This document shows positions 29,429-64,000 of a DNA stretch of 64,000 nt, one piece after another; position 1 is the stretch's first letter; each line of letters begins with the position of its first letter. Source of the stretch: Amphiscolops sp. MND2022 (Eukaryota). Below the pieces are notes generated by a model that worked only from the letters and a program-made list of their open reading frames with translations, did not search any database and had not been told where the DNA came from. Location of the stretch: assembly GCA_964187785.1 (NCBI GenBank), contig OZ076409.1:3040001-3104000 (forward strand), in the 5' to 3' direction. The translations under genes were made by a program, and so were the position numbers.

Positions 29429-29540
29429 AATTCTATTAAATTCATCACAAATTAATCGTCGAATTTGATGACGATTTTGATCTGATCAGAAATTTCACTT
29501 GGATCCATCAGCGGGTTCAACGGTGCTTTTAACCAAAGTT

Positions 29541-39754: not shown

Positions 39755-42700
39755 TTAATTGCCGATCTCCGGACTGGCAGCTCGTTCCCCACTAAGCGTG
39801 TATCCTAGCTTCGCATACAATTGGAGACGATAATCTTCTCCGGCCACAATTCCGATGTCGTCCCACAACATACCCTCGTCCAGCTCCGCCAAATTGACCA
39901 ATCGTCGATGTGACTCAGTCACTTCCTCTAACAAACGGCCGCTCACACTGTCATAACTTTGGATATGATTAGCAGACAAATAGGCCAAAATCACAGCACA
40001 AACACAACTCGCGACATCGCTACTTAACTGCCCAAATCCATCGCAGCAAAGACTGCTTCTGCTCTGAACTCCTCCATCTAGGCATAAAACACTGCGAAGC
40101 AGATTCTGAGCGCCACCACTAGAACAATGGCGAAGAAGATCGATGACAGAACAACCCTCTGTACGTCCTGCTAGTCCCGGGTCACGTCGGATATTGACAA
40201 GGAAATCCAGAAAGCCACGTTCCATCCGACCCTGCTCCGCACGGGTGATCCGACCCAGATCCACAAGCACATCAGTGAAAATCCTGATCTCGTCTAATAG
40301 GACGTCCTCTGCAACAAAACTCAGACAGGGCATACTGAAAACACTGCGCACAAACGACAGATCGTCTCGCACACCTGGCAGATTGATAACAGTCTTCACA
40401 ACGGTTAGAATGAAAACCGGAACAAGTGACAAATCCTCTTCATATAGAGCGGCATTCGAGCCTTGATCGTCCACACAACGAAATCCGTCCAGCAACACCT
40501 GATGTTTCACTTCTGAGATTTCATAGCTTTCCACATTCAGAAAGAGCCATCCACGAATGTCCAATTCCGATGGTAGCTTTTCTTCCTCTACTAGCATCAT
40601 CATCAGTGACTTCACAAAGGCAGCACTCTCAATTGCCCAGTAGCACGCGCGCAACGTCGAAGACCCAAAACTCTTCTCGTAGGAGCTGATCACTGAAAAA
40701 CACGAATCACAATTATCACAAGAAACAACCAGGTTTAACATTACACCCACAACCGTATAGCTTCCAACTCGATCTCAACAAAAAAACCAAAACCCCCCGT
40801 AACTTACAGAACTAAAGTATTACTAACAAGCACAGTACACAAGACCAAGAACACGGAGTCTAATCGGAATGCCGACCTCAGCACGTAGTGTCAAGTCTAA
40901 GGCATCCAAAGGCCCTTCACCACTAGCGAAGCGTAGCAAGCATAAGATGTCAGACCAGTTCGTCCGTAACTCCTCGCACACATCGGCCAGGGTCCAAATG
41001 TACACCTCGCCGGTAACAATCGCCTAAAATGTAAATAATACCATCCCAATCAATTCGATAAAATCAAACAATTACATCACGCCTACACACCTGCACAACA
41101 CTAAAATTATTACATCAACCAATTCTCTAATATACTACGTACTTGCAGAAGTTGAGGGCATCCTAGCAACAGAGGATCTTTCACGTATCCTTTGAGACGT
41201 TTCTGTAAATGGTTCAGTACCACGTGAATGTCTGTACCCCCCAGCACTGATCCGGCCACATCCACAATTGCCCGACTGACATCTGACAGACCCAGAGACT
41301 TCACGTCCAATGATCCGACTCCTGTGCTGCTTCGAAAGAGCCCACCCAGCTGCGGCAACTCATCGCAACACAGTCCAAGTGGGACTGGCTCACCGAGCAT
41401 ACAGCACCACATGTTCACTAGCCATGTGATTACCCTGCTTTCCCAGTCTCGAGCCACACTGAAGCTATACACACAGTAGTGCTTGACCCCGTCTAACACA
41501 CACACTGTAACAGTCCCTGTCACGCGCCCTCCCACAACTGACAAATGGAAGCTACTGTAAGTGCTATCGGTCCAGACAGTGATCAGTCGCCGCATCACGT
41601 ACGGCCACAGCCCTAATACGATCACGCTCTAAAACAAAAACGCTGTGAATAAAACATAAAAATAGCATCCACCCTACCCCCCACCCACTACTAAAACTAG
41701 AAGAACACATAATGGCCAAAAGTATGACTAAAAAACATACGAGTAGACGCTTACCATGACATCGTTCAATCCGCATTGCGCCCCAAACAAAACCGCATGT
41801 TGGGGATCGGAAGCCACCAACACTTCCCACAGGTTCGTGACACTGGCAAACTGACAATCACGATATAGGGCGTCCACAACAAAGCAAATAAACAGACGAA
41901 CAGTTCGCTCTGGCCAGTCTTCCCCTTCCTCTTCGTCGCCCCACACAGGTCGTCCAGCACCCTCCAACTCGAAAACTTCCACCACATTAAGTGATGGACA
42001 GGTCTCTATGAAAGGCACGGACACCCCCTCCAGGTTCACACGGCATTCTGCACTTTCGTCACTTGTCATGAGAGTTCCATCACGTCGCCGCAACGGTAGC
42101 CCTCGGTGCAGCCGTACCACACAATCCAGCCGATGATGGCCTAGGCCTCGGCAGTGCTCCATAAAGGTGGTAATCCCTCGGCTGCCCACCTTAACATCTC
42201 TCTTGCACATTAGACATCGCACATACGACATGCGCGACTCGTGATTGCGTGAATATCCTAGCGCCAGCCCGCAGTATGGATGATCAAACCATCCAGACTT
42301 GATCACTTTCTTTCCTGATAATCACAACCACACAATATAGCAAAAGTAATACCATTACAAACCATCATAGACAACGACTAAAATCATCTGTTACACATCA
42401 GAAAAATCGAAAAATGCAAAAGTCACAAGTAAAAACCAAAAAAGTTCACCCGGAGTGATGAAAACATGATGTAAAATAATATTTTCATTGGAAATATAAG
42501 CGAAAAACGAAGAAAAAACGAAAAGATGAAAAAGAGATGTGTTTGCACACCACCAGAATGAAAAATGGAAACTTTAAAGAATGAAAAACTCGAACGATGG
42601 AAAAGAGATGAATAGAACGACTTTAAACCAAAATTGAGATATTTTAGAGCGAAAACAACTTAACGATGAAAACGAGATGTAAACTGAAAAGAAAACACTG

Positions 42701-44422
42701 AAAAATAGCGAAAACCGAAACGAGGAATTTTAAAGATGTAAAAGAGATGGAAAGTTCTAAAAAAGGACCAGAGAGCGAAAAGACTATTGTTCAAAACTTT
42801 TGACGATGAGAAAGTGATGGAAAATGGAAAACTGCAGAAAACCATATAGTCAAAACAGAAAAACAATGGAAAATGGATAGAAAAGAAGAAAAACGTGAAA
42901 AATGCTAGTGAAAGTAAAAACGAAGAAGGAAATGAATGAAAATCTACTGATCAGATACTTCACCGGTTTAAAGCTGTTTAGTTAACCTGGCAGACGAGAT
43001 GCAATGGGCTCGTCATCGGAGTCCAACAGGCTGGGTCCCATTGGAGACGTCTCGATGTCAGCAGTAGCCACATTGGACGCAACACTCCCTGGAGCAGACA
43101 CGCCAGACGGAGGACTACGAAATGAGAAATCGTCAGGGATTTCCAGTAGGGTCTCGGTGGTGCCAGCTGAGGGAACTTCGGACGGGGCAACGTCAACGTC
43201 AACTGCCCCAGGAACATCAGCAATCGGTGGAGGAGGAGAAGACGGTGGAGTAATCGCTGGAGGATCATAGCAGGTAGCAGCAACTCCAGTTTCAGTGACA
43301 GCTTGGACAGTTTGATCTGCAACGCCCACACAGGCATTGATGGCCATGTCTCTACAATCGACAACAGCATTTACAGCAGCGTCGAGAGTAATACGAGCAG
43401 GAGGAGGACTAGCAACGGTGAAAGATCGCCTCAACACTGGCGACAGTACAGACACTGGCGCCTGCCTGACAGGAGAACTCACTCCAGTTAGCGACAGTTC
43501 ATTGAGGAACGAGGAGAGGTTGAGTTGAGGAGGCCCTCCTTGTGTGCTGACGTCAACGCTGCCATCACCGAAGTCACTGGTCCCGATCCCGATAGAATAG
43601 GTGATGGGACGCGGTCTCGGGGCATGGATAGGCGTTGGACCTGAAAGAAGGAAACAGAAATCAGACGACGACGAATGAAGAAGAAAGTGCGCGTACGCCG
43701 CGCGAAGAAAGAAGACAGGAGAAGAATTCATCTCAAATCCATCCTCAAAATGGAATTCGCAACGAATCAGCCATGAAAACTGTGGATATTCATGATACAT
43801 CCTAAATTCATCCTAAAAATGATTTTTATGAGGTAACCGACCGCGAAGGGCACTACATGCAGATGAGATGTTTACATCGGAATTACATCGGAGTGTCCGG
43901 ACGATGCCTTAGTACAGGAGGAAAGTAAAATGGAGTCAACTCACTAAATTGCTGGATGCTATCTCGTAGCATGTCCCGCATGTGGCGATCATACCACCCG
44001 AAGGTGATGCTACCGAGGGAGGCATACCAGGGATAGTGATCTAAACAGTAACGGAAAGAGTCAGCGTCTGAATGGATCGGGGATGAGAAAAGAAGAGATT
44101 GTAGACTGAGATGATGATCTGAAAGGAAAGAACTTACACTGCGGAAGATACGGGACGTTAGGGGCCTGTTCAATTTGCTGCTCAGGTTGATACTGAGGTG
44201 CGGGAGATGCTGCATGGATTGGAGCCTCTTGAGGCGGAACTGTCTGCAATGTAGTCAGCTCGGAAATGATGCCGACAGAGTGAACGGAGTCCGCTAAAAC
44301 CAAGACACGCCTTCAGTTCCTAATTATTCCCTAACCCGTTTATGAAGAAGAGAAAAAATAGTGCACTTACTTTCTGTGGCCTCGGTCTCCGGTAACGAAT
44401 AGACGGAGTGGATATCCGACAT
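39755..44422 (-). CDS. Antisense 7-exon accessory gene of element B, predicted 1013 aa (S/T/P-rich N-terminus, CxxC..H..H Zn finger, hAT-like helical body)
   Basis: Exons 44422-44371, 44293-44138, 43640-42987, 42314-41755, 41628-41143, 41023-40828, 40692-39755; all GT-AG with compatible phases, 3042 nt with no internal stop; the exon-3 donor (CAG/GTTAAC) is weak. Confidence 0.78.
42457..42819 (+). promoter_or_regulatory. Six GATG-N7-GATG motifs, ~70-bp period, in intron 3 of the accessory gene
   Basis: 42457, 42525, 42596, 42665, 42735, 42805. Confidence 0.7.
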
Positions 44423-45190
44423 CGTGAAGAATTGCAAAACAATCTGAAAAGGAACGGAAGAGAGTGAAGAAAGGAACGAAATCGAAGAATCTGAGGACAA
44501 GAATTTGATCAGTAATTAAATGGCCTGATCAACCATGATTGCGAGATTACAAATTCACGAAAAACTTTAAAGAGCGCGAATGCTGCTTGAGCGACAGGAC
44601 AAACCAAATACTTGAAATTCAGAAGATGAAAAATCGATGAAAACTCTCCGATTTCAATGACTCTCTACACTTTTCTTCCCAGTTTCAACCAACTTAGCAA
44701 TTTTCTCTGAAAATGAATCGCCCCCCAGAATTTGACTACAAAAGCTTCAAGTATTTGATTTTGATGACAGTTGCCAGTCTCAGATCAATGCCGACGAAGT
44801 TGAGCGGAAACGCGCAAAGGAAATCGTGGCGATTTTCAAAACCGACTTGACGGAAGATGATTCACGGATGAGAATGTTTGTTAACAACCGGTTGAGTTTC
44901 CTCCAGTTCTGAAAATTCAGTTTTCCGCCAATCAGAATTTAGCAGCAGTTGCTATGGCGACGATTTCATCTCTTTCTCATCGCTGAGAAAATCAGACAGC
45001 GGAAGCGACAGTGACGGTTGCTATGACAACAAAATCATCTCTTTCCTATCGCGGAGATTGACAGAGCGGCGGCGCCAGCCGTCTGTTATGTCAACATCGA
45101 TGTCTCGCTGAGTAAACAATTCATCGTTCATTCATCCCGGGAAACTTCGGCAGACAAGAAATGGCGCCGATTTACTGCCAAATTGTCAAC

Positions 45191-45390
45191 NNNNNNNNNN
45201 NNNNNNNNNNNNNNNNNNNNNNNNNNNNNNNNNNNNNNNNNNNNNNNNNNNNNNNNNNNNNNNNNNNNNNNNNNNNNNNNNNNNNNNNNNNNNNNNNNNN
45301 NNNNNNNNNNNNNNNNNNNNNNNNNNNNNNNNNNNNNNNNNNNNNNNNNNNNNNNNNNNNNNNNNNNNNNNNNNNNNNNNNNNNNNNNNN
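45191..45390. other. Assembly gap (200 N)
   Basis: N run. Confidence 1.
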
Positions 45391-45403: not shown

Positions 45404-48400
45404 AAATCAGGTATTGAAACTCCTAGTTGCGTCGCTACTCCGTATTATTTGTTGAAACCGTTTTTGTTCGGGCAATTCCATTTCCTAATTGAGTCTCAAA
45501 ATTCCTGTAAAATAAAATTCTAGCTGAAATTTTCATCGACGAAAGCACGCCGGCGTGATCAATTAGTCACTTCCCAAGTTAGGAAATTAATGTTCGAAGT
45601 AAAAGTATGACACTCAAAAATATCGACGGAAATGAAGCAGAGTAAAGGAATTCGGAAAATGGGAAATACCTAAATACTGGAAAGGAACAAACGATGCTGA
45701 AACGAGAATATCGAAATTATCAATACAGAGAAATATTCATCATACTTTTAACAATAGTATGGGCTAAACACAAACATTAACAATTACAACGAGGACAACC
45801 CGTTGTATAAAACATAATCACCGTCAAAATTAGAAAATAGTGTAAAACTCCCAGTTATCAAAATAAGCAACAAACTAGCATAGAATTAGTAGCATCTCAT
45901 GATTGCAGTAGTGACACAATCTCAGAAAATTGCAAGAGGACATTTGGAAAATGAATTGATCTTACGTTGCATCTTCGGTCTTTTTGTCAAAAATAAATCT
46001 TGCATAAGATGGAATTATTCAATTGGAACTCTTCTGCCAATGAAATAATTCCAACGTAAGTCAAACGTGGTTTTTGTCATCAGTGAAATGTGCACTTTGC
46101 CTTATTTCAATCATTGTATTCAGTGAGGAATGGGCAGAACTAAGTATATTGAGAGTAGCATCATGAGGCTGCTTTGATATCATTGGGGAAATTGACACCA
46201 TTATGGGGTTTTGAATTACAAAATAGAATTGCACGTAACGTAAAACAAACGTAAAATCAAAATCACGTTGTGTTTGTTTCATCACTAACTTATTACCAAG
46301 TTACCTTTTTAATCTTCCTTACAGTACAGCTTTTCTTATATGAAATCCTGTTCCAAAATTCTCTTAAATGCGTCGGTTCAAAAAGGAACTGCGTCAGAAT
46401 CTCGTTTGTACCAATACTTCATATCTGCAGTTGTACAATGTGCTCCGTAAATGCTCCGTACGTATTAGGATTAGTTATAGCTGAGCGGCGGTGGCTGGCG
46501 GAGCGGAAGCGGAGGGCGTAGGTGAATTCTTTCTTTTTCTCTCAGCTAATTGGCGTTGCTAGGGGTAACCAAGCGTGATTTCTATTAGCTCTAGCTCAAA
46601 TAGATCATTTAGGGAACAGCACTATTGGTCCGCAAAAATAGAAACACCCATTACTAGCTTAGTTGAGTGACGCTGTCATAACGTTGTAAACATTGGTTTA
46701 AAACCACTTGACTGAGGTTTCAAGCGGATATTTGACAACTACTTTAACACTGGAAAAACAACTCCTCTATATTTTGTATGTTTTCCATTTTAGATCGTAT
46801 GAAGTCCGTTGGGATCTCGGAGTTAAACCTTGTTGCTAATGTTTTCATTTCAGTGTGGAAAAGAAGAGAAAAATGATCCCATTTTAGAAAATGTCTCTCT
46901 GTTATTATTTAGATTTGTATGGAAAAATCAGATAAAGAAACCGAAAAAAAAAGAAATAGCGTTGCGCGTGAGAATATTTGACCGGAAGTTTTAGTTAGTC
47001 CAAAATCAATTCTAAAAAGATTCCGTGACGCTTACGGCGTGTTTCGTAACTGAAAATTACCTACAAATAGTTTAGCTGAACTGTAAGTAAAATTAGGTTC
47101 TCTTACTCATTATTGTTAGTTCTGTAGTTTGATAGTTCGGTTCTAATGGTACTTGCAGTACCCTCGGCCGCGTCTTCTTCCTATCGCGTAGCACCAGTCG
47201 CAACCACGTCCGGGAGCGGGCTAGAAACGCGGGCAGTCCGTGGCAATGGGGATTTTTTTGATCTGCACTCGGGGGCGGCTGGTGTACCTTCTAATTTGAT
47301 GGGGGCCACGACCACGGCCGACGGACATGTAGACGTCTTTTTTTCTTCTCTCTCGAGCTCTAGCGGCAACTTTGCGAAATACTCTTTGGCTTCAGGGGTG
47401 CACCAAGCATTCTTATAATCTTCGGCAAATTCAAATCTCGTGCGGAGCTCGTTTAGGTCATTTAGGCTGTTTGTCACTGGGGCGTCTGAATCACGGGAAG
47501 GCCACACAGGGGATGGTCTTAGAGGAGCGTCAGGTTCTTCATAGTAGTCCATCTCTGAGTCTGATCCCTTTGTTGTTGGCAAGTTTGGCAAGTTAAATTT
47601 CACCTTTTTTGTTTTTTATCTTCTAGATAGGGCTGATTTTCAATTTCTTCGGCGAACAGCCGAAATCAAAAGTCGTCTCGTACTCAGGATCGCTCCCGCG
47701 GAAGACTTCCGTAGATGAGTCGCTTGGGTTAGCTTTCTCCACCATATTTACTAGAGAGTTTTTATTGGTGTACTTCTCCTTACATTCTCTTAATCCGAGG
47801 AGTTGTCGATAACAAGCGAATATCCGTTCATTGTTTTTTGATTATTTTTCAGGAATTTCTTGTTTGAGAGGGTGAAGGATTTCGAAAAAAATGAGACAAA
47901 TATTGCAAGCTCGTCAGGCAGGAAATTGGACGACAAATGACCGTTTTAATTTCCTTTCAGTCGTAGCTTTCTTCGAGTTTTGTTGGTCCGTTTTTCCGCT
48001 TTCGTGTCGGTCCGTCCTGACCTTTTAGGGCGACGAACTTCTATCCTCGTTGTGATTGGTCAATAAGATGGATTAAAATAGGAAATTTTCATCTTAATTC
48101 CGTTTTCCTTCATCAGCGTCGTTATGACGTCATCAATTTTCTCGAGAAGGTTACTTTCACGGAACGTAACTTCTAAAATGGTTTTTAAGAAGGCTTTCTT
48201 CAGAGCTTCTTGATGAACTTTTATTCACTAGTAGGATTTTTTGGAAACGTTTTGTTCCCAACAATGCCGTAATAGCCTTTTCAGTGAAGTTGAAGAATAT
48301 GCATCTTTCCTGAATACGTAGGGATGACGTTGCTAATTTCTTTTGGTTGGTTACGTTCACACAACGCGATTTTCTTTCCTTGATTTTCCTTTTCTTTTTA

Positions 48401-51400
48401 GATTGTCTTGAAGATGGTCCCGCTGTTCTTGGTTTTGTGGAGATGGGAGACGAAAAATTTTTTCCTCCTACAGTTCCTCCAAATCAGGTATTGAAACTCC
48501 TAGTTGCGTCGCTACTCCGTATTATTTGTTGAAATCGTTTTTGTTCAGGCAATTCCATTTCCTAATTGAGTCTCAAAATTCCTGTAAAATAAAATTCTAG
48601 CTGAAGTTTTCATCGACGAAAGCACGCCGGCGTGATCAATTAGTCACTTCCCAAGTTAGGAAATTAATGTTCGAAGTAAAAGTATGACACTCAAAAATAT
48701 CGACGGAAATGAAGCAGAGTAAAGGAATTCGGAAAATGGGAAATACCTAAATACTGGAAAGGAACAAACGATGCTGAAACGAGAATATCGAAATTATCAA
48801 TGCAAACAAATATTCATCATACTTTTAACAATAGTATGGGTTAAACACAAACATTAACAATTACAACGAGGACAACCCGTTGTATAAAACATAATCACCG
48901 TCAAAATTAGAAAATAGTGTAAAACTCCCAGTTATCAAAATAAGCAACAAACTAGCATCGAATTAGTAGCATCTCATGATTGCAGTAGTGACACAAACTC
49001 AGAAAATGGCAAGAGGACATTTGGAAAATGAATTGATCTTACGTTGCATCTTCGGTCTTATTGTCAAAAATAAATCTTGCATAAGATGGAATTATTCAAT
49101 TGGAACTCTTCTGCCAATGAATTAGTTGCAACGTAAGTCAAACGTGACTTTTGTCATCAGTGAAATGTGCACTTTGCCTTATTACAATCATTGTATTCAG
49201 TGAGGAATGGGCAGAACTAAGTATATTGAGAGTAGCATCATGAGGCTGCTTTGATATCATTGGGGAAATTGACACCATTATGGGGTTTTCAATTACAAAA
49301 TAGAATTGCATGTAACGTAAAACAAACGTAAAATTAAAATCACGTTATGTTTGTTTCATCACTAACTGATTACCAAGTTACCTTTTTAATCTTCCTTACA
49401 GTACAGCTTTTCTTATATGAAATCCTGTTCCAAAAATCTTTTAAATGCGTCGGTTCAAAAAGGAACTGCGTCAGAATCTCGTTTGTACGAATACTTCATA
49501 TCTGCAGTTGTACAATGTGCTCCGTAAATGCTCCGTACGTATTAGGATTAGTTATAGCTGAGCGGCGGTGGCTGGCGGAGCGGAAGCGGAGGGCGTAGGT
49601 GAATTCTTTCTTTTTCTCTCAGCTAATTGGCGTTGCTAGGGGTAACCAAGCGTGATTTCTATTAGCTCTAGCTCAAATAGATCATTTAGGGAACAGCGCT
49701 ATTGGTCCGCAAAAATAGAAACACCCATTACTAGCTTAGTTGAGTGACGCTGTCATAACGTTGTAAACATTGGTTTAAAACCACTTGACTGAGGTTTTAA
49801 GCGGATATTTGACAACTACGTTAACACTGGAAAAACAACTCCTCTATATTTTGTATGTTTTCCATTTTAGATCGTATGAAGTCCGTTGGGATCTCGGAGT
49901 TAAACCTTGTTGCTAATGTTTTCATTTCAGTGTGGAAAAGAAGAGAAAAACGATCCCATTTTAGAAAATGTCTCTCTGTTATTATTTAGATTTGTATGGA
50001 AAAATCAGAATATGAAACCGAAAAAAGGAAATAGCGTTGCGCGTGAGAATATTTGACCGGAAGTTTTAGTTAGTCCAAAATCAATTCTAAAAAGATTCCG
50101 TGACGCTTACGGCGTGTTTTGTAACTGAAAATTACCTACAAATAGTTTAGCTGAACTGTAAGTAAAATTAGGTTCTCTTACTCATTATTGTTAGTTCTGT
50201 AGTTTGATAGTTCGGTTCTAATGGTACTTGCAGTACCCTCGGCCGCGTCCTCTTCCTATCGCGTAGCACCAGTCGCAACCACAACCGGGAGCGGGCTAGA
50301 AACGCGGGCAGTCCGTGGCAATGGGGGTTTTTTTTGATCTGCACTCGGGGGCGGCTGGTGTACTTTCTAATTTGATGGGGGCCACGACCACGGCCGACGG
50401 ACAAGTAGACGTCTTTTTTTCTTCTCTCTCGAGCTCTAGCGTCAACTTTGCGGAATACTCTTTGGCTTCAGGGGTGCACCAAGCATTCTTATAATCTTCG
50501 GCAATTTCCAATCTCGTGCGGAGCTCGTTTAGGTCATTTAGGCTGTTTGTCACTGGGGCGTCTGAATCACGGGAAGGCCACACAGGGGATGGTCTTAGAG
50601 GAGAGTCAGGTTCTTCATAGTAGTCCATCTCTGAGTCTGATCCCTTTGTTGTTGGCAAGTTTGGCAAATTAAATTTCACCTTTTTTTTTCTTTTTTATCT
50701 TCTAGATAGGGCTGATTTTCAATTTCTTCGGCGAACAGCCGAAATCAAAAGTCGTCTCGTACTCAGGATCGCTCCCGCGGAAGACTTCCGTAGATGAGTC
50801 GCTTGGGTTAGCTTTCTCCACCATATTTACTAGAGAGTTTTTATTGGTGTACTTCTCCTTACATTCTCTTCATCCGAGGAGATGTCGATAACAAGCGAAT
50901 ATCCGTTCATTGTTTTTTGATTATTTTTCAGGAATTTCTTGTTTGAGAGGGTGAATGATTTCGAAAAAAATGAGACAAATATTGCAAGCTCGTCAGGCAG
51001 GAAATTGGACGACAAATGACCGTTTTAATTTCCTTTCAGTCGTAGCTTTCTTCGAGTTTTGTTGGTCCGTTTTTCCGCTTTCGTGTCGGTCCGTCCTGAC
51101 CTTTTAGGGCGACGAACTTCTATCCTCGTTGTGATTGGTCAATAAGATGGATTAAAATAGGAAATTTTCATCTTAATTCCGTTTTCCTTCATCAGCGTCG
51201 TTATGACGTCATCAATTTTCTCGAGAAGGTTACTTTCACGGAACGTAATTTCTAAAATGGTTTTTAAGAAGGCTTTCTTCAGAGCTTCTTGATGAACTTT
51301 CATTCACCAGTAGGATTTTTTGGAAACGTTTTGTTCCCAACAATGCCGTAATAGGCTTTTCAGTGAAGTTGAAGAAGATGTATCTTTCCTGAATACGTAG

Positions 51401-51553
51401 GGATGACGTTGCTAATTTCTTTTGGATGGTTACGTTCACACAACGCGATTTTCTTTCCTTGATTTTCCTTTTCTTTTTAGATTGTCTTGAAGATTGTCCC
51501 GCTATTCTTGGTTTTGTGGAGATGGGAGACGAAAAATTGTTTCCCCCTACAGT
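45404..51553. repeat. ~3.07-kb tandem duplication, units 45404-48474 and 48481-51553
   Basis: Colinear near-identical copies with scattered SNPs; 6-nt filler tcctcc at the junction. Confidence 0.93.
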
Positions 51554-54500
51554 CGCTGCCACTGGATTTGTCAGTGGGAATGAGACCATTTTTGGGTACA
51601 GTGACGACGATGTGATTCCGTCTGGTTCTGATATTGGACACTGTCCCATGTTTGCAAAATCTTTCTGACTTCCAAGGGTGTTTAGACTTTGTTTTTGGTG
51701 ATCAGCCTTTGTAGTCTTACCCGAAATCCTGACGCGTCTGACCAGATCTTGATTTTCAGTAACTCAACCTGTCGCTTGTTCAACTAACCTCGAAGTCAAT
51801 GCGGGGGAGTCCCAGACGGCCACTGTGGAATTGTTTAAATCTTCCACTACTGCCTTGCCTTCTATCTCTGAAATTTTGCCAGCAGTCCGGTCTACTTCCG
51901 TTAATGAGGCATTAATCTCCACTTTGGTTGTTCCTGAGCTTGAAACTTCGTATCTTGTTATACCTAGCAGTTCTGCCGTATTTCCTTCGTCGGCTTCTGT
52001 GATATCTGGATCTCGGGCTCTTACGAGGGGTGTTGATGTCAGCCCTGATCTGTCTACCGATAGTGAGTCTCAAGGAGGTGAGACTGATCCCCCCGCCGAG
52101 AAAAAAATCAGGCTAGTTGCTGAAAGCGTTGTTGTCAAATATCGCTTGAGGGCGAGGTGTAGCTGATAAAATTTGTCTTGAACTTGCTTTATTAGGGTTG
52201 AAAGGGTATTCCGATGCGATGCCGTCTGTGAATTTTGCTACGTCCCCCATGCGCGCTAAGAAAACTGTTCCTCCTCCTCCGAGCCCTCCACCTTTGACGC
52301 GAGCACCTGGTGGTTGGAATAGTCAAAATGAGGACCAGACTGCTTCCGTTGGTGATATGCTGGTCACTTCTGGTGACCTGATGCGATTGAGTCAGCCTTA
52401 TTGGATGAGGTGAGGAATCGGACTTCACAGACTATCCGCACTGGTATGTTGCCATTTTATTGCTTATTGATGGGCCTCTGGCTTGTGCTTGTTGTTTGTT
52501 TGTTGAGTTGGTCCCTATTGGTTTGTGTTCGGTTGCGAGTTCCCCTTTCTCTCTCTCTCTCTTTTGTTTTTTTTGTTAATGGCATATCTGTATGTTGCAG
52601 GATTCCGTGAACTCAATGAAAAGGTTGGGAGCCAGAAATTGCCCAAGACATACAGCAGTCGCAAGTTGTTGCATCGTCGCATATTGGACCTCCATCCTGC
52701 CTACAAGAGTTTCGTGAGTGGTGCAAAGAACGGACAGGCGACGTACTTCCATTGCCGAGTGTGTCGTCGTGATGTGGCCATGAAAACACAAGGCTCTGGC
52801 GAGTTTAGGCGCCATTTTGAATGCGACAAACATTGGATCAAGGACGTAATTTATATGGTGCATATGGGCTTGTCAGTCCTTAATCGTTTGATGGAGCCTA
52901 TGGATTTGACAATGATCCAGATGGCTCAATATCGAGCTAAACCTTTCGAAAACCTTGGTGAAGAGGACCCTTTCCCTGATGACTTTGTGCCAAAACATTC
53001 CCGAGTGGATTTTAAAGTTCCGTTCATGACGTTCGTGGGCTATCTGGGAGAACTTCTTCGCAATGGTGGAGACTTTACTTTCTTGCGACGGCTTTGGGGG
53101 CATTTTCGGTCATCTCTGGGCGATTGGAAGCCTGAATTTGCTTTGAATTGGAGCCGTTCGGAAACCGTGGTAAGATATTTCCCTTCTGTTTCCGCCTGTC
53201 TTGCGTTGTAATTTTGTTTTCCTTGGTTAATCTACTGATAATACGTGTGCTGTATATCGTGGTGGCAATGGCGTCTATGTTTTTAGTCAATTCTGTGCCA
53301 AGCTCTGGCCCCTCGTGTGTTGTGGTTGATGGTCAAGCATATTACATTCTTCAGAGGGTACAGTTTGCAGTTCGAGAAGTCATCGTTTAAGGAGTAATGC
53401 TATGTGCTTTGTTGGGAGGAGAACCATCTAAAAAAGGTGTGTATTGGAAAAGACTCTTCGGAATAGCCCGTGCCCAATGCGGAATTGATGCATTTATCGC
53501 GCGTTGCATATAGCCTTTCCACCAAACAGCTGCCAGTTTCTATTTCTGGTGCGATTCCGTCTTTGGTTCGTGTTTTGGGAAATGTTCGTGAAGAAGGTCG
53601 CCGTTTCGCTGTGTATCAAGCCTTCAGCGAAGAAGTTTTCATACAATGCTTCCGATAGGCTCTACCAGGATGTCTTTGGTTTGGTGAAAGCGGTGACGAT
53701 TGTCGACTATGTTGTGCAGCGTCTAAAGAGTGCCTTGTACGAGGAGTGGACGGAAGATGAACCAGTGTTGCGTAAGTGTGTTCGGCAAGGTTTCGTCAAT
53801 TTTGGTGATTATCGAGCTCTGTTGACTGATTTGATCGATCTGTGGCCATCGATTCGACCTTACATCCGTTGCACTGGAAATCCCGAATCAAAAGAGAAAG
53901 CCGATAGTGTTAGTATGGTGTGCTTGATTGTTGTAAGTTGGGGTTGACTTAGGTTGTAAGTAGGTTTGGTTTGTTTCTAGATGCGAGGTCCAGACTGGCG
54001 ATTAGATTAATTGCCGACGATATTATTACATATCAAATCGAGTTGTTGCGTTTTGTGCTCGATACCTGTAAGTATGGTGTTACGACTGATTGATTGTGTT
54101 ATGAATCTTTGATTGTGTCTGCGATTCTATCCGTTGTTCCGACTGTTGTTCGTTATCTGGATTTCGGTTTTGTGTTCTGATGGTGGATTTGTAATTTCTC
54201 TGTTTTAGTCTTTATCAACTTCGAGAAGCTACAACAGTGTCGGGCGGATTACGGATTTCACGGGTACGGTGAGCTATGTCACTTCAACTACTGTCTGTTG
54301 ATGAAGACTCGGGACATTTCTAGTTTGCCTTCTATTCATAAATGGGAGGAGTATATGGATCCCGAAAAACTTGTCGAATTCCCTATTGCTCCGATTGAGT
54401 CGTTTCTTGAGAATTGTGCTTTTGGACGGTCACTGTCTGCTGGTAAGACGACTGGGGTCTTGGAATTTCGTGGGCGCTGCAGAGAGTTCCTTGATTGTTT

Positions 54501-55480
54501 GGTGTTCGTCATCTTGAGTATTTCTGCAGTTTCATCGAGAGTGACACGGAGCCTTAGCTGTGTTGGTCCCGAGATTTTGCTCGAAGGCGATGATCATGTA
54601 GTGTTTCGTCTTTTTGCCGATTTGACTGATGTGCTGGGGGCATGTGGGCTATTGGTTGCTGATGAGGCAAAAGCAGCAGTTGAGCAGTTTAACAGCTACA
54701 TCGTTGTTAAACGGAGACAGCACGATCGCTCCAAAACCACTGCTAGCGACATTCCTAATGTGGTGCACTATTTGCTACGTGATTTTAGTTTCCAGGCCTG
54801 TCATCATGTTTGCCGTGTATTGAAGCTATGCTGTTTGATTATGGGGAGTCCTTGCGGGGTTCATCCGCAAGTGCTCTTTGATTTGGGATGTGGTAAAATC
54901 AGCAAAGACGTGTTTCAAGACTGTCTCCGACTCGTCCAAAGTTATGTGTTGAATCCTGGGTATTGTCCTCAGTTCTTTTTTACAGAGTCAACAGGGTGCA
55001 GTTCGTGATGCTATTGCCAGTGCTGGTATATTTTTCGTTACTCCAGGTTATGATGTTTGGAAAGATGTTTGTGATCCCGGAGTGGCTTCGTTTGTCTCGC
55101 CGAGTAAGAAGGCTTATGATGCATATTTGTTGGAGCGCCGGAAATCTTATGAGCATCATTATGTGGATTGCAATAAAGCAAACCGTCTTTCTCGCGTTAA
55201 TGCCGTAGTTCCTGCTGTCGATACGGATAGTACAAGCACCTTATGTTCAAAGAGTTCCAGGTGCGATGCCCAATGGTCGGATTCTGGGAAAAAGACTGCG
55301 TCGTCTTCCAACAAGTCAGCCAGGGCTGGTACTGGTAATCAAAAGGGGAAGGAGAAGAAGCCTCCAAAAATTGTTGATCCGGACGTCTTCCATCGGATAA
55401 AGTTAAGGTTTGCACTTTTAAATAACTCCATTCGATGTTTTGAGTGGTGCTTATGTGTTCGTATCTTTGTTGAATTTTGA
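51480..55480 (+). pseudogene. Antisense spliced accessory gene of element C, homolog of the B gene, degenerate
   Basis: Exons 52601-53169, 53287-~53908, 53981-54067, 54209-~55480; CRVCRRDV...H.....H finger; stop at 53395 and frameshifts; 5' exons uncertain. Confidence 0.72.
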
Positions 55481-55649: not shown

Positions 55650-58600
55650 TGCACTAGGTCTCGGGTTAGGTCGTAAGTTGTATCTCCCCACATTTCTAGG
55701 ATTATATCCGTACACTATGGGCGACATTTGGGAGGTTTGGGGGGACTTGCTATAGGTGGTGGAGTCAAAATGTAAGGATTGTCACTGACATCCAGACTAA
55801 ATGACGTAACGTTATCGGAGGATGTTTTATCCCCGTCAGAATTTTCAACTGTGGCTGTTTTAGCCACTTCATTTTCCGTTGTAGTTGCGTCCTGTCTTGT
55901 CTTTGTTTTCGGTGATTGTAGCTTCTTCTGTTAAATTTTCCGTAGGAGCTCCGAACAGAACTTCTCCCAATTCGGTTTCCCAAGCTTGCGCGTACCAATC
56001 CTTGTGGGTTGTTTTAACCTCTGGATCTGGAAGGTAATTTTTCCTTCTTACTGCTACGTCAGGTACTCGCTGATTGAGCGCATATAGCCCTAGGCGAATT
56101 CTATGGAGGGTTTGCGTATATCGTGTGCCCGTGCGACGTACGATGTAGTTGTTGTTCGATAGGACTTTGACTACCACATAAGGGCCAGTCCAGATGCAAT
56201 CTTTGAAGGCAAATTTCATCGACTGGTTATCAGCTTTCGGATTAAGATCGTAGCAGTAGTCGTTGACTTTGAGTGGTGTGGCAGTCGCTTTCTTGTCGTA
56301 GTACTGTTTGTACTTGAGGTAGGATTGCATCAGGTTGTATTTGGCAGCTTGATGTATTTCAGCTATTTGTTTTTGTAGTTCGTCCGTCAATTCTTCGTTT
56401 TTGACATTTTTTCCATTCAGGCTTTAATCCAAGTTTGATGTCCAAGATATTGTACGGGATGCGTCCGTGGAACACTGTTGTAGGTTCACAGCCTAAGCTC
56501 TCATGATATCCTGTGTTGTAGTTCATGACTGCGATTTGGACATATTTGTGCCACATTGATCGTCTCTCTCCCGTTCATGTTTTGAGCGAAGTTTTTAGGG
56601 AGGCGTGAGTCCTTTCTAGTATGCCATATGTTTGGGCATGTTTTGTCGATGCGTGGTTTATCCGTATATCGAGTGTTTGGGCTATTTGATTGACTATCTC
56701 TGATCTGAATTGTGAACCTTTGTCCGTTAAGATGACGGTTGGTAGGTAACAGTGTCGTGTCATTATATGAATTATACATCGTGCCACTGTTTTTGCTGTC
56801 ATGTCTTGTGTTGGGTAGGCAGAAAGGTAACGTGAGAAAACGTCCATCATCGTGACAATATGTTGATAGCCGTTTGATAAAGGCAGATTCGGTAGTATGT
56901 CCACTTCCAAACAGTCTTCTGGTCCCATAGTAAATTCGGTGTTGCTCAGCATTTTGGGACGTATTTGCCTCGTGTCGATTCTTTTGTTGGCAATGCAATC
57001 TGTGCAGCTAGTTACCCAGGCTCTGATTTTTAGTGCTAGTCCCGGGAATTAAGATTTCGCTCTGCATTCTTGTATCATTTTGGTGATCCCTGGATGTTTG
57101 TTTGTTTTCCCGTGTAGTGTGGACAAGAGTTCTGGGACAAGGTGTTCGGGACTATGACTTGGTTATGCGTGACCGATCCGTCTTCTCCGTAGTACTTTCG
57201 CATTAGGACTCCATCTTTCATTATGATTCTTTCTTCATGTCGTACAAGATTTCGTCCTCTTGGTTCAGTTTTAAGGAAGTGCTTGTCATATTCTTCGTGT
57301 GATATCGGTAGTTTCAACGCTTTAAGGAGGGGATCCGCATCGTGTTCGTTTCTGATCCGTGCGTGTTCCTTGATTGCGCGGAACGAGTAGATTGCGGAGT
57401 TGAGGGGTATCTTGATGTCTTCAGTTTCCTTGGTTGATAGGTCTTTTTCGTGTTCTTCCTGGGCACGTTGTTTGCTTAGAGCTTTCGTGGCGAAAATTTC
57501 TTTTTCAGATTCTTCTTCCCCATCTGGCAGGAAGAAACGTTGTTCCTCGTCGGCGACGTCTGATGATTGTAGGTTGACCTCTATTGGTGACGTTAGGGTG
57601 TCGTCCTTTAGTTTCAGTTGCACATTTCCTTTTGGAGTGAGTTCGAGTCTCGAAAGGAAATATGTTGCCGTGTTCTGGGAGCCTGCTACGTGCATGATTC
57701 AGAATTTTAACCAAAGGACGTAGTCGCAGGGGGCTATCCAGAGTGGGGATGGTGTAGTTTTTGTCTGGAAAAATCTTGTTACTTAACGGTTGTCTGTCAA
57801 GACCAACGTCGGTATCGTCGTTTCCCATAGGATGTGACTATATTCAAGGAATGCATGGTATATAGCCAAAAACTCTTCGCAGTAGATTGACATCTTTAGC
57901 TGTGCTGGTGAGAACACGCGTGATCCGAACGCTACAGGCGTGAAGGTTTTCTTTTTGGAGAGAAGTTTTCGTTCATCATTTTCTTCAATCAATAGGGCAT
58001 AGCCTGATGCACGGAAACTTCCGTCCGTCATTAGGACGTATTGTTTTCCTGCTATTTGCTGTCTGAGTGCAAGTCCACAGGCTTCCGCTAGGCTGGCGTT
58101 GATTTCTTTGAAATTCTCGATGAGTTCTTGCGAGATTCTAATTTGGAGTCGGCTTTTAGGAGTTCATACATACCAATGAGTTTTTCTGACAGACGTGGTA
58201 TGTAGTTTCGGTAGTAGTTGACAATGCCGATATATTTTTGAACTTGTTTTTTGGAATTTGGGAATCGAACTTTGGGGAGGAAATTCTTGAAATTTTGATC
58301 TTGCGGGGCTACTCCGTCGGGATGATGGTCCTCCACAGAATTCGACTTGTGTTACAACAAAGTGACATTTTTCGGTGGTCAATTTTAGTCCCGCTTTCCT
58401 TATGCACTTGAAGACTGCTCTGATGTTTTCGATGAGCTGTTCCGTTGTATTCGCAGCTATACCAACATCGTCAACATTTTGTGCGCACTGGTCTGCTTTG
58501 ATGACTGAGTCGAGGTATTCCCGCATTTAGCTTGAGAATGCTGACAGGGCTCTGCTTAGTCCTTGGGCTAGACGACGGTAGGCACACGTCCTACTAGCAA

Positions 58601-60682
58601 AGTTAAAAGCAAGTAATTCTACTGACCTTTGATCTGCCATTTGGAGGCAGTGGTACGCCTGGGAGCAGTCGAGTTTGCAGAACAGTTTTTTCCCTGCTAG
58701 ATGTTGTGCCGCATCTGAGAGGGTGCTGACGGGGTGGTTGTTGTTGATGTAGTCATCTGCGATGAGGGCGTTGACTTTTCGCAGATCCACCAATAGTCTC
58801 AGCTTGCCGTTGGGTTTCCGTTGTGCCAATATAGGACTGGCATACTTGGAGAATGGGAGTGTCGTGATTATGCCATATCTGTGCATGGAGGCCAATTCCA
58901 CCGTTAGGTCTTCTTTGAGAATGATTGGGACTGTTAGGATCTGTGTGTATACCGGTTTGTCATCTTGTGGGGTTAGACTGACTTTAAGTTGCGTATTCAT
59001 TCCGATATCTAGCCTCTGGCGGGCGAAGATGTCGTGGAATTCGACAATTGTATTTTCTAGACTATCACGATCTTTTCCTGTAATTAGTGAGTCTGTCCAT
59101 TCGAACATTGCGAGGAACTTGTTTCGGGAATCTTCACTTTCGGTTGCGTCGAGCTTTTCTAGTTCGGCGAGTTCCCGTAAATCTTTCAAATACCGCTTTT
59201 GTACGGGCGAATGTTCTTGTTCCTTGCCAGGGTTTTCTGGAGTTGGGAACCAGAATTTTGCTTCAATATCCTCGGGTCGTTCTACTTGCATTAGTGCATT
59301 GATGTACGTTACGACGTCGTCATGTTCTGTGAAGAGGTTGGGGGTTTCTTCTGGTTTTAAAATTTGTAATTCAGCTATTTTGGTGTCTGTAGCTATTGTA
59401 TAGGGAAAATCCGTTGTATTGGCGATCTTTATATCTCTAGCAGTTGTTACTGCCGGAGCTACTATTAATTTCGAACATTCATCAAATCGTGGTGGGGGTT
59501 GGATTGTTCTACTTATTGGATGTTCGGTACTCACTGGTTTTGATGCGTAGATGATACAGGTGCATGTATCGTATGCTTTGATTCTGTTTTGGTCGTGATG
59601 GGCTTGGGGTTGCATTCTTGCATTTCGTCGGTGAGCGCCATCGTGATTTGGATCTTCGGGAAGTCGATTGTTCCTTGTGCAGTGTCTAGGATTGCAGCAT
59701 GTTTGCGGAGGAACGCTAGTCCTATTATGGGGAATGACGTGTGGTTCATGACAATGAACGTTTCTTCAAAGGTGTAGTCCTCAATTTTGAAACGTTGGGT
59801 GTACGTGGCGAGTGGTTGTTCGAGTTTGGCGTTAGTGTACTGTACTTTGAAAGGGAGTGGGGGTGCTTTGTTGACGATGCATTGACTAGCATTCAGTCGA
59901 AGTTTTTCAGCGTCCCTTTCACTTATAGCATTAATGTACGCACCTGAGTCGACTAAGGCAGATTTTGACAGTGTTGAAGTCGACTGGTAGAAAGATCATT
60001 CTCTTTTTCTCCTTGAGTGTGATTGCAGACAATAACGGGATGTAGTCGTTATCTTTGTCGTGTTGGATGAATTCTTTGATTACATATAGATCTTCGGGTA
60101 GTGTTGAAGGGCATTCCGTTATTTCTTCGTCTTCATCTGTCATTGCCGTGGCTGGTGCAGTTTTTGGTGGTGATGAAGGAGAACTGGTTTTTCTTCGCTG
60201 CTCTTTTTCTTGTTGCGCCCATATTGTTTTGTCTTCGATGCAGATAATGTTCTCTGCGTCTATCGGCGTGGACGTAAAGGTGACGGGAACTGTCGGAGAC
60301 GGTGTTGTTCTTTTCAGTATGGGTGACGGTGGCGATGGGAAGTTTGGTGTTTCTTTGGGTTGAGCTTGGGGGTTTCGTCCCAAGGATCACATGTATAGTC
60401 TCTGTCTTATATATAGATACGTTCAGTTTTGGATTCTGGCGGAGGTCTTTTGAGTGTCGCAGAGTTGTCTGGCGACTCTGTTATCCATTGTGGTAGCGGC
60501 GTTGGGTCTTCTGGATGTCTGGCATTATGTGTAAATATCATGCCTACGTTCCAGCGACGTTACCAGTCTTGGCTTGGTTCTTCATTGCATTCTGTGAAAA
60601 ATCCTCTTCGTACCTATTTGGGGGTCTTCGATGGTGTACGCCCTCGCGTCTACTTTTTTCCCAAAGCGTAGGCGCGGCGATT
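55650..60682 (-). pseudogene. pol: Pol of element C, fragmented
   Basis: Protease region, RT (NVDD for YVDD), RNase H TDGS, integrase DVFSRY/TDKG/ERTH, WTGPY. Confidence 0.92.
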
Positions 60683-61904: not shown

Positions 61905-64000
61905 AGAATCAATCATTTTCAAAGTATAATGAAAACATAAACGAGAGGATATTTTACAGTCCAATTTTTGAAGACCGTAGCGAATAATTTAAATGGTGTT
62001 TTGATATTTGATCTTAACACTAACATTTTGCCTAATTTTTCCACATCAGGTGATTGGCTTCTTGGAACAAGCCCTCACATTTTGTGGTTATTAAGGTAAG
62101 TTTGTTCCGACGAAAACAATGGCCGACTCTTTCGAGTTCAATATTCATATCTGTTGCATCTCGTTTCCCTATTTTGATTAGACTTGTAACACCGGCAAAT
62201 AGCGCTGTATCAGGTTCTTTTCACATTTCTGGGAGATCATTTTTATACAAAAGGAATAAAATGGTCAAAGTACGGAGCCTTGGGGAACACTTGTTTTTAT
62301 TCCTCGAAGATTAGAATTTCATCCATCCTTTTCGACTTCCTGGCATTGGCTTCTTAAAAAACTTTCCAGCAGTTCAAAGATTGGTCACCTTAACCATAAA
62401 TTTTAGGTTTTTTCCATAACATTTGAATGGTCTAATTAATCAAATGTTTTTTTTCCAAATCGAAGAAACATGCTTGACTTGTTGATTTTTTTATCAATTG
62501 CTTGCTGCATAAGTTCAGCGTTATGCTCAATGGCGTTTGTACAAGAGTGTTTCTGACGAAATCCGTTTTGAATTTACGACAAAATTTACAAAATTTTGCA
62601 AAATTTGTTCATTACTCTCCGAAGGACTTTTTCAAACATTTCAATGAATGATGGCAAGAGACTAATCGGTCGGTAGTTTTTAGGATTCTTTTTTGAATAG
62701 ATGAGCCTAATAAAACTTCAATACATAAAGCATAATAACAGGTGAGCAACATTCAAAAATTCCATTATAATTCAATCATATCCGTTGCTTTTCTTGTTTT
62801 TTTTTTATCGATTTGATGCATTAAGATCTTTCATTAAGTGCAAATGGTTCTAGAACAAAAGTGTTCTCAAAGTACGTGTTCTGTATTTTTTATTAGATTC
62901 GGTAATTCTAGATGATAGGATAGATTCCACTGATGTGAAAGGTTCATTCAGCAATTCTGGATCAAGTGCGACTAATCAAGGATGTCCTTCTTGTACGTGT
63001 CCTTTAAGTGTTCTGAAAAGTGTGTCGGGTCGACGGATTGTCCCAACGTTTTTCGAAGTTAAGATCTCTTTTCGCCTTCCTAATTAGAGATTTTACACTG
63101 TTTCGTGCCAATGTGTATGCCGATCAGTTTTCATCCGTGGGATTGTTGATTCATTGTTGTAATTTTTTGTTACGTTGCGCAATTGCGTTCTTGATGTTAT
63201 TTGTGATCCACTCAGTACCATGAGATTTATCATTACCAACTGTTTCCGGTGCAAATTTGCCAACGCGTTCCATAATGGTAATTGCAATTTTTTTCAAGAC
63301 TAATACACCCTCGTTCTTGATATTTTTGAGGTTCTGGTCTAAAAGAACCAAAATGTTCAAAACTTTTTCTTCTCTGATAATTCTCGCAGGATGGTTCTTT
63401 CCTATGTTTTTTTGAAAATTTATTGTTATGTCATCTAGCACTGTGTAGTGGTCACTAAATGAGGTATTGCCCGTCTCTATTGAAACCGAAAAACTGGTTA
63501 TAACGTGATCTAAACAAGTTGCAGAAGTTGGCGTCACTCTAGTTGATAGAATGTTCTGCTTTCTGTAAACAAAGGCAGTCGGACGCTTTTCATAGTCTTT
63601 CATTTCTTTACTCTCAACTATTCTAATGACATTAAAGTCTCCAAAAATCATCGAGTCATCCTTTAGACACCTTAGAAAATTAGGAAGTTTTTCCAAGTCA
63701 GGTAGGAAGTGTTTCATTATGACTTTGAGGGCGGTATATTACGCAGAATGTCCTGTTTTTACCAAATAAGTTTACTCGTCGAAACTTTGCTCGTATTCTT
63801 TTTTCAATTTCAGTTTCGAACTCTGTGGGCTCAAATTCAACTTTAACTCAATATGGAACGCAACACCAATTCTCCCCTATTTTGTTTTGCGTGCTTTCGA
63901 TAGAACCGGTTGTTTCTCTGGTAGTACTAATACTTTGAAAGCGTTTTTCGAAAGCCATGTTTCAGTTGTAGCAGTTACCGTCGGTTTGTTTTTGTAAGAC
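61905..64000 (-). mobile_element. Degenerate LINE (CR1/L2-type) ORF2 remnant
   Basis: APE endonuclease motifs GDFN, TRVTPTSATCLDH, SDH; RT motifs YRPISLL, GFR, PQGSVL; many disruptions. Confidence 0.85.

Follow-up and report, generated by a model that had tools for sequence, protein, structure and literature searches.

A 64,000-nucleotide (nt) window of the Amphiscolops sp. MND2022 genome (GenBank assembly GCA_964187785.1, contig OZ076409.1, positions 3,040,001 to 3,104,000 of the forward strand) contains two Ty3/Gypsy retrotransposons, element B on the plus strand and element C on the minus strand, which face each other. The stretch between their pol regions holds the antisense gene of each element, an assembly gap, and a 3.07-kb repeat unit present twice in tandem. 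Here we describe the antisense gene of element C (window positions 52601–55480; hereafter copy C), together with its counterpart in element B. Based on comparisons within the window and across the 1.07-Gb genome, we assign a probability of roughly 0.8 to the reading that copy C is a decayed copy of an accessory gene of a Ty3/Gypsy group that is very abundant in this animal genome. Animal origin is also indicated by 47 cadherin-repeat matches above the Pfam cut-off in this genome, several of them in frames of ~1000 codons or more. The accessory gene is antisense to the element and lies between the integrase and the 3′ long terminal repeat (LTR); it comprises four or more coding exons and is homologous across B-like and C-like clades. 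All coordinates below are window positions.

The antisense genes and their carrier elements

Copy C has four exons (E1 to E4; Table 1), and 388 nt separate its stop codon (55478–55480) from the point where the opposite-strand integrase frame ends. A conserved phase 1 acceptor, ..GTTGCAG/GT, precedes E1 at position 52601, and the closest relatives of copy C are 72–76% identical to it in E1. Copy C is a pseudogene. In addition to the stop codons and frameshift in E2, which is 622 nt long in copy C vs 621 nt in five relatives, E3 is 5 nt longer than in relatives (27 codons in the intact ones) and runs into a stop codon, and E4 has one frameshift near 54953–55008. The pol of element C is fragmented too.

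In element B, Pfam identified zf-CCHC, RVT_1, RT_RNaseH, Integrase_H2C2, and rve domains, and an aspartic protease is present as well; the element thus has the gag-protease-reverse transcriptase (RT)-RNase H-integrase order and the TG..CA LTRs of Ty3/Gypsy. Four other copies of B in the genome have 98.9–99.1% identity to the window across 14.9–15.3 kb. In all four, a 2.25-kb LTR copy occurs beyond the antisense gene, which places the gene inside the LTRs, and based on these copies the full element B is ~18.8 kb long. The 3′ LTR of the window's own B falls within an assembly gap of 200 N (45191–45390); by comparison with the four copies, this gap should hold ~0.4 kb of internal sequence and the entire 2.25-kb 3′ LTR.

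The 5′ LTR of element C was not found within the window. Where the 5′ end of C is expected, a 195-amino acid (aa) frame (63151–63738, minus strand) resembles, by eye, part of the endonuclease of a non-LTR element (long interspersed nuclear element, LINE), albeit with no significant Pfam family; element C may be truncated there.

Table 1. Features of the two elements and their antisense genes. A slash in a sequence marks an exon–intron boundary.
Feature	Position	Strand	Remarks
Copy C antisense gene	52601–55480	+	Four exons, GT-AG introns; tail-to-tail with integrase of the minus-strand element
Copy C exon E1	52601–53169	+	N-terminal conserved block; zinc finger CRVCRRDV...RH.....H; ends SETV/GTAAGA (phase 0)
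Copy C intron 1	53170–53286	+	117 nt; GTAAGA...TTTTTAG; phase 0
Copy C exon E2	53287–53908	+	Starts SILCQALAP; three in-frame stops, one frameshift
Copy C intron 2	53909–53980	+	72 nt; GTTAGT...TCTAG; phase 0; position differs from B intron 2
Copy C exon E3	53981–54067	+	Ends LRFVLDT + T, then GTAAGT (phase 1)
Copy C intron 3	54068–54208	+	141 nt; GTAAGT...TTTTAG; phase 1; absent, exactly, in the C7 subfamily
Copy C exon E4	54209–55480	+	Starts F-FINFEK; predicted all-alpha domain, low-complexity basic tail
Copy C upstream coding exons (candidate)	51393–52443	+	Peptides conserved in 8 related loci
Copy C upstream block 1 (candidate)	Met 51522	+	MGDEKLFPPTV..SDDDVIPSGSDIG; MGDEKLFPP..SDDDV.PSGSDIG in C-type copies
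Copy C upstream block 2 (candidate)	51753–52166	+	Acidic, Ser/Pro-rich
Copy C upstream block 3 (candidate)	donor 52443/52444	+	Ends ..SQTIRT+G/GTATGT, phase 1
Element C pol remnants	55869–60386	−	Ty3/Gypsy, several frame breaks; Pfam RVT_1 and rve
Element C integrase core	56575–57048	−	
Element C RT	58527–59765	−	
Element C protease region	59531–59995	−	
Tandem 3.07-kb units	45404–48474, 48481–51553		98% identical, 6 bases between
Element B gag-pol side	29051–37572	+	5′ LTR, then gag-pol frames to 37572
Element B 5′ LTR	29051–31295	+	TGT...ACA ends, then TGGTGACAGG, primer-binding-like site (TGG...)
Element B antisense gene	42314–39755	−	Homologous to copy C gene, frames open
Element B upstream exon E0	43731–42987	−	MNSSPVFF.. 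to ..DSDDEPIASRLP+G/GTTAAC (CCAG/GTTAAC), phase 1; Pro/Ser-rich
Element B exon E1	42314–41755	−	Ends NDVM/GTAAGC
Element B intron 1	41754–41629	−	GTAAGC...TTTTAG
Element B exon E2	41628–41143	−	Starts SVIVLGLWP
Element B intron 2	41142–41024	−	
Element B exon E3	41023–40828	−	Ends LGLVYCA+T/GTTAGT
Element B intron 3	40827–40693	−	GTTAGT...TTTCAG
Element B exon E4	40692–39758	−	Starts (L)ISSYEK; stop 39757–39755

Homology of the B and C genes

A sequence-only reading of this locus had proposed that the two antisense genes are homologous, that each lies tail-to-tail after the integrase, and that their intron positions are conserved. Pairwise BLASTP of the B and C translations was significant for the zinc-finger exon E1 (E 5e-6, 26% identity over 80 aa) and not for the other exons. 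Using hhalign on small clade profiles, exon-wise E values were 4.2e-6 for E1, 0.076 for E2, 0.017 for E3, and 2.5e-10 for E4 (probability 96.8%, 252 columns). Global hhalign of the full-length spliced profiles, the comparison of spliced products that the sequence-only reading had suggested, is significant (E 9.6e-13, probability 98%, 653 columns, 21% identity).

The exon joints and phases quoted for B and C in that reading are all present in the sequence, and the full-length hhalign alignment places both exactly. Intron 1 (phase 0) falls between residues 189 and 190 of B and between residues 231 and 232 of C, in the same column; intron 3 (phase 1) falls one nucleotide past residue 416 of B and residue 465 of C, again in the same column. 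Two of the three core introns are therefore at an identical aligned residue and phase. Conservation does not extend to the additional core intron 2, which is phase 0 in both clades but follows residue 351 in B (~393 in C numbering) vs residue 438 in C, 40–45 residues apart. Both proteins have a zinc finger with identical C-x2-C-x16-H-x5-H spacing; the matching cysteine and histidine blocks that had been described are thus real, although the intervening residues had been slightly miscounted. As had also been claimed, RT is far more similar between B and C (73% identity over 103 aa) than is the accessory protein (16–26%), with the integrase core at 46%.

Copies elsewhere in the genome

Genome searches returned 6506 first-look candidates with E1 of C and 3143 with E1 of B; 150 from each search were scored, and all were significant. 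Among the 150 scored matches to E1 of B are 24 non-self copies with 97–99% aa identity. Nine further genomic copies, five C-like and four B-like, have first exons 56–84% identical to those of the window copies; individual copies are designated below by clade and number (B0, C0, and so on). The integrase is located downstream on the opposite strand, in tail-to-tail orientation, in all 11 loci inspected for context, which represent two deep clades. The distance between gene and integrase is 150–700 nt in intact C-type copies and ~2.2 kb in B.

GT-AG sites occur at the same places in all ten modelled copies, except that intron 3 is missing in C7. Within the C clade, E2 has 207 codons and E3 has 27 codons in all five intact copies, whereas the B clade has 65 codons for E3 in all four copies and 162 codons for E2 wherever that exon is unbroken (three copies). 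Exon lengths are equal between B0 and B1 (567, 486, 196, and 935 nt), with 0 gaps and 66–81% identity. The introns of these two copies differ in length, contain indels, and are 48–51% identical, which is the random level.

One lineage lost intron 3 precisely. In C7 (locus L031), a single frame reads LQLMLDT-F-HIHLPKLRQ, exactly the joint predicted for the other copies, and database clusters P0068 (95 member sequences) and P0069 have the same E3–E4 junction; other database members read through or stop within intron 3. Recombination with a reverse-transcribed, spliced mRNA would give such a precise loss, and the loss thus speaks indirectly for splicing of the intron. Within the C7 subfamily (with P0067–P0069), intron 1 is open in frame, resulting in a read-through frame of 559 codons.

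Database relatives (66, 58, and 119 proteins) are unnamed single-exon open reading frame (ORF) calls from ENA assemblies. Each spans at most one or two exons; they provided alignment depth and no annotation, and a search for longer database proteins with E1 of B found none. AATAAA or ATTAAA was present within 700 nt after the stop codon in just three of eight copies, which is uninformative.

Predicted structure and possible ancestry of the protein

Of the 34 database ORFs that span the site, 24 have the C-x2-C-x16-H-x5-H zinc finger, as do 10 of the 11 copies from the inspected loci. Its spacing is presumably BED-like, although Pfam did not report zf-BED for E1 of B or C. We obtained two AlphaFold models, of E2 and of E3+E4, using alignments of natural sequences. 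The E2 model (predicted local distance difference test score, pLDDT, 74.5) has a beta-beta-beta-alpha-beta-alpha core followed by helices, and the E3+E4 model (pLDDT 72.6) is all-alpha with a disordered basic tail. When the E2 model was searched with Foldseek, the hAT transposase Hermes was at ranks 2, 4, and 5 (E ~4e-3, probability 0.96–0.99, 210–217 columns), alongside the RNase H domain of the RT of MLV (murine leukaemia virus); the structural matches are the cores of RNase H, integrase, and Hermes. Hermes was the structural match with the widest coverage for both models and was top-ranked for E3+E4, although the matches are weak. The matched ranges of the Hermes chain are collinear, with 152–353 for E2 followed by 278–565 for E3+E4. 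An RNase H-like core is thus present, at the level of predicted fold only. We consider a hAT-like ancestry plausible and lean slightly towards it, based on a finger, a predicted RNase H-like core, and a predicted helical domain in an order collinear with Hermes.

Several results weigh against this ancestry. The long E2–Hermes alignments have a root-mean-square deviation of ~10 Å, and the structural scores fall within a range that the tool describes as common for unrelated helical or RNase H-like folds. Foldseek against the PDB gave nothing for E3+E4, and reinspection of the list found no Hermes. Among 56 + 58 family members searched against Pfam at E values up to 10, no family recurred. A profile of 15 hAT C-terminal regions from this genome had no significant hhalign alignment to the family (E 0.14 and 0.57), and sequence-profile searches of the PDB had a best E value of 0.21 (alignment A1), with no match for alignment A3. 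By eye, the two clades have no conserved acidic residue in common where beta1 and beta4 end in alignment A3.

Other searches gave similar results. Pfam reported nothing significant for eight exon translations at E values up to 1, the ESM Atlas returned no usable match, and the hAT dimerisation domain PF05699 had no Pfam match in 56 members. A DBD_Tnp_Hermes match (E 0.019) in one of 56 members was treated as noise. The C-terminus of the B clade contains W..YR.L..LG...GER..S, which resembles the hAT dimerisation motif; this candidate was dropped because the hhalign result was not significant. With no conserved DDE triad evident and no hAT dimerisation motif, a protein of transposase origin would probably be a non-catalytic derivative.

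The protein may instead be element-borne without being derived from a transposase, as an orphan or as a captured host DNA-binding protein whose likeness to Hermes reflects a common architecture. We regard this as a serious alternative, somewhat short of even odds: the structural scores are common among unrelated helical and RNase H-like folds, and neither a hAT sequence signature nor an evident DDE triad was found. It is opposed by the two independently built models, E2 and E3+E4, which both pick Hermes in collinear ranges, and by the N-terminal C2H2-type finger that both modelled parts follow, as in hAT transposases.

Divergent histories of pol and the accessory gene

Within clades, sequence divergence shows that the tree of pol is not congruent with that of the accessory gene. 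When B0 was compared with B1, B4, B6, and B8, the pol side, including its non-coding spacer, was 87–97% identical, whereas the accessory region of the same pairs was ~72–77% identical where blastn aligns and as low as 52% identical in global exon alignments. Between B0 and B4, the proportion of synonymous differences (pS) is 0.151 in the integrase (94% aa identity) vs 0.65–0.78 in accessory exons E1 and E2 (69–72% aa identity). In the C clade, the integrases of C2 and C4 have a synonymous substitution rate (dS) of 0.19 (97% aa identity), and dS is saturated in the accessory exons of C2 and C3 (47–67% aa identity). The B0–B8 and B0–B1 rows of the integrase comparison, in which the wrong short frames had been paired, were left out. 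The upstream exon of B6 (L034/L037) is B0-like (92–100% in tblastx), yet its E1 is 63% identical. Aligned to window positions 42321–45190, B6 appears as a mosaic with flanks almost identical to B0 and with breakpoints on both sides of a divergent E1–E4 cassette.

The sequence-only reading had called the gene vertically inherited and fast-evolving, which would require a very fast protein clock and a single history for pol and accessory gene. Purely vertical descent would account for the 73% RT and 46% integrase identity between B and C alongside 16–26% in the accessory protein, and for the uniform 78.3% nucleotide identity of C0 and C1 over 5.6 kb spanning both gene and integrase. However, amino-acid changes make up only part of the excess divergence: accessory synonymous sites and introns are saturated where integrase pS is only 0.15–0.22, accessory introns cannot be aligned where the pol-side non-coding spacer is 87–97% identical, and B6 has B0-like flanks on either side of its divergent cassette. 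We consider this explanation improbable. Because the accessory gene is far more divergent than the integrase next to it, at synonymous sites and in introns, an old cassette appears to have been shuffled among elements by recombination. The accessory alleles thus have a history older than, and different from, that of the neighbouring pol, which is most simply read as the movement of old, divergent alleles of a single gene between elements by recombination, with pol homogenised more recently.

We estimated the ratio of nonsynonymous to synonymous substitution rates (dN/dS) by the Nei–Gojobori method in 27 exon comparisons. The ratio was 0.07 for both E1 and E2 of B0–B1, and it was 0.14–0.24 for E2 of C1–C7, E2 of C2–C7, E1 of C0–C1, and E3+E4 of B0–B8. 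The near-identical pair C3–C4 had ratios of 0.32–0.67, in line with decay once an element has inserted. Saturation of dS affected 17 of the 27 comparisons, in which dN was 0.23–0.54. The dN/dS comparison across copies, another suggestion of the sequence-only reading, therefore gave values far below 1, and the accessory gene evolved under purifying selection (dN/dS ~0.07–0.24 where measurable).

These results bear on whether the antisense unit acts only as an RNA, in antisense or double-stranded RNA regulation, with incidental open frames. Non-coding antisense transcripts are described for other retroelements in passages of PMC7264820, and the protein has no family matches. Against an RNA-only role, dN/dS is far below 1; exon lengths are kept exactly, with zero indels, while introns decay; frames of 312–421 codons stay open in copies whose accessory proteins are 40–67% identical; the spacing of the zinc ligands is conserved; and the predicted folds are confident. 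We consider an RNA-only role very improbable.

Least probable of all is that a DNA transposon or host gene was inserted or captured separately beside two unrelated Gypsy integrases, which the divergence of the B and C proteins and their transposase-like predicted fold might suggest, given that place and orientation are alike in 11 of 11 loci of both clades, that the alignment is collinear (E 9.6e-13) and two introns match in residue and phase, that all four near-identical 15-kb copies of B carry the gene inside their LTRs, and that self-comparisons, without a specific search for terminal inverted repeats, showed none. Incongruent trees or a non-significant alignment had been named in the sequence-only reading as signs of independent captures; the trees are indeed incongruent within clades, but the alignment is significant, and structure, position, and introns are common to both clades, so that incongruence here is no sign of independent capture. 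The view that this is an ancestral gene of the element, and not a chance insertion, holds up, given its location inside the LTRs, the 11 of 11 placement, the shared exon structure, the two introns, and purifying selection.

Upstream exons and the candidate start

The start at 52601 given in the sequence-only reading coincides with the conserved acceptor, and the gene very probably begins further upstream. The E1 frame of most copies lacks a Met ahead of the conserved block, and the conserved acceptor precedes it. In element B, the phase 1 donor of a putative upstream exon, E0, fits the phase 1 acceptor of E1, and the open frame of E0 is retained in the divergent copies B6 and B8. Candidate upstream exons of copy C likewise end in a phase 1 donor (Table 1); in relatives of C, the third upstream block contains PPKRAKK..PPPPSPPP.

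The candidate first Met of copy C, at 51522, is 32 nt inside the right end of a 3.07-kb unit. Elsewhere in the genome, this unit occurs as same-orientation pairs 10.7–15 kb apart, as LTRs would, and it is probably the LTR of C-type elements, doubled here, although its ends are not clean TG..CA. A probable LTR unit is thus directly upstream of the copy C gene. This points to, but does not prove, a start of antisense transcription in or at the 3′ LTR. A purine run, AGGGGGAAA (minus strand), is present just inside the right end of the unit.

Proposed mechanism and function

We propose that a promoter of the gene's own, at or near the 3′ LTR, would drive transcription of an RNA that is then spliced. 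The introns would persist through retrotransposition, since in the genomic RNA they run in reverse and hence cannot be removed from it by splicing. The likeliest route to the loss of intron 3 would be recombination with a reverse transcript of the spliced antisense mRNA, which would imply that this intron is spliced in vivo. The protein core would be ~730–850 aa long, or nearer 1000 aa with the upstream exons rich in Pro, Ser, and acidic residues.

The protein is most likely a nuclear, sequence-specific DNA-binding factor. By analogy, it may act in trans on the element's own DNA, either controlling transcription from the LTR or tethering and targeting the integration complex; we put this forward tentatively, as something closer to one chance in three than to an even one. 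Allele diversity would then mirror recognition specific to each subfamily, or else an arms race with repression by the host. In the most specific version, which as a whole is less likely than not, an animal LTR retrotransposon took over a hAT-type transposase and keeps it as a non-catalytic, zinc-finger DNA-binding accessory factor. Deeply divergent alleles of the cassette, swapped between elements whose pol is nearly identical, would in that case make it a specificity module that selects integration sites, recognises the LTR of its own element, or escapes host repressors. If true, one class of mobile element would have domesticated the enzyme of another.

Three further points count against the overall interpretation. 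The 11 loci inspected, out of thousands, were best-scoring matches and not a random sample; transcription, splicing, promoter, and start codon are all things that we infer from the genomic sequence; and the function proposed is argued by analogy alone.

Relation to known antisense genes

Antisense ORFs between pol and the 3′ LTR (aORF-3R) are described in plant Grande, RIRE2, Retand/Tat, and PvRetro13 elements and in fungal Boty (passages of PMC7264820). Examples in passages of PMC7264820, PMC11963269, and PMC4408406 include gene23 of maize Grande, rice RIRE2, Silene Retand, and other Tat/Retand elements, and the antisense gene of Grande is described there as having its own promoter. According to passages of PMC11963269, Retand elements nearly always bear an antisense TRP28 ORF predicted to be DNA-binding; the extra ORFs (eORFs) of Tat elements carry PMD or Tr28 domains (passages of PMC4408406). 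Like aORF-3R, the gene described here is antisense and is positioned within the element, after pol and before the 3′ LTR; aORF-3R are a structural class and not a homology family. Both are present in most copies of a family, with a long region between pol and the 3′ LTR, and the plant proteins are thought, in the same sources, to be DNA-binding and nuclear, like the protein proposed here. Unlike the plant aORF-3R, the present gene has an animal host, at least three to five introns with conserved positions, a zinc finger and predicted RNase H-like core, and strong allele diversity with cassette exchange. Based on Pfam, there is no sequence relation: neither the eight exon translations nor the 56 + 58 family members had a match to the TRP28/PMD family, Transposase_28 (PF04195).

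The gene brtn of Boty-like Ty3/Gypsy elements in Botrytis and Sclerotinia (Zhao et al. 2011, cited in passages of PMC7264820) is also antisense. Like the gene described here, brtn is an element-borne extra gene behind pol; its carriers are fungal chromoviruses. The brtn-type fungal proteins are small. HBZ of HTLV-1 (human T-cell leukaemia virus type 1) is an antisense, spliced retroviral gene started in the 3′ LTR. The likeness to HBZ is one of working only, as a spliced antisense gene at the 3′ end of a retroelement, with a first exon that in C-type elements is putatively located at the border of the 3′ LTR, and with a product that is probably a nuclear regulator. HBZ is a small bZIP protein without homology to the accessory protein, whose promoter and first exon are candidates here. 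An antisense promoter in the 3′ LTR of HTLV is mentioned in passages of PMC7264820.

The hAT transposases (Hermes; PDB 2bw3, 4d1q, and 8edg) resemble the accessory protein in the order of zinc finger, RNase H-like fold, and large all-alpha domain, the latter two being predicted here. Unlike them, the accessory protein has no detectable hAT sequence similarity, dimerisation domain, or conserved DDE, and its gene has introns, rides inside an LTR retrotransposon, and showed no inverted repeats of its own in the self-comparisons.

In word searches of the literature, we found no animal Gypsy element with an antisense, intron-bearing gene. Bdelloid rotifer LTR elements bear extra ORFs, and the one "antisense" passage in that source concerns small RNAs (PMC5408684); an annelid survey only cites the plant review (PMC8220671). 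The layout is thus known. New are the protein itself, a structure of several introns with positions in common, the occurrence in an animal, the number of copies, and the exchange of the gene in the manner of a cassette. The animal instance has thousands of candidate copies, some of them nearly identical and apparently young. As a large, multi-exonic gene clearly under selection and with a confidently predicted fold, it makes the function of such genes testable, as well as the persistence and loss of introns in retroelements and the exchange of accessory modules as cassettes. For genome annotation, thousands of such exons could be miscalled as host genes. If the transposase ancestry is true, the gene would also be a case in which a retrotransposon has domesticated a protein from a DNA transposon.

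Other features of the window

Downstream of the B integrase (37825–38326, plus strand) are two short sense frames of ~75 and 94 aa (e.g., ..ICDGHYHQIVTEFIVNLTQYSSFAGGCQNDEF..). These frames fall in a block that is 87–97% identical among B-clade copies, and they are possibly a small sense ORF3 or a conserved cis sequence.

A third retroelement, presumably the element A of the sequence-only reading, occupies 643–5814 on the minus strand, with long frames, a Retrotrans_gag match, and very AT-rich, low-complexity sequence. A 1.79-kb unit is present as a tandem duplicate (13738–15525 and 15519–17281) with 97.9% identity. At 22383–23868 (minus strand), two overlapping frames of 250 and 260 aa contain a C..C...H finger and a ..SDVLERVFSSAG.. 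motif. Pfam reported nothing for these frames at E values up to 0.001; by their motif, they look like a hAT-type transposase.

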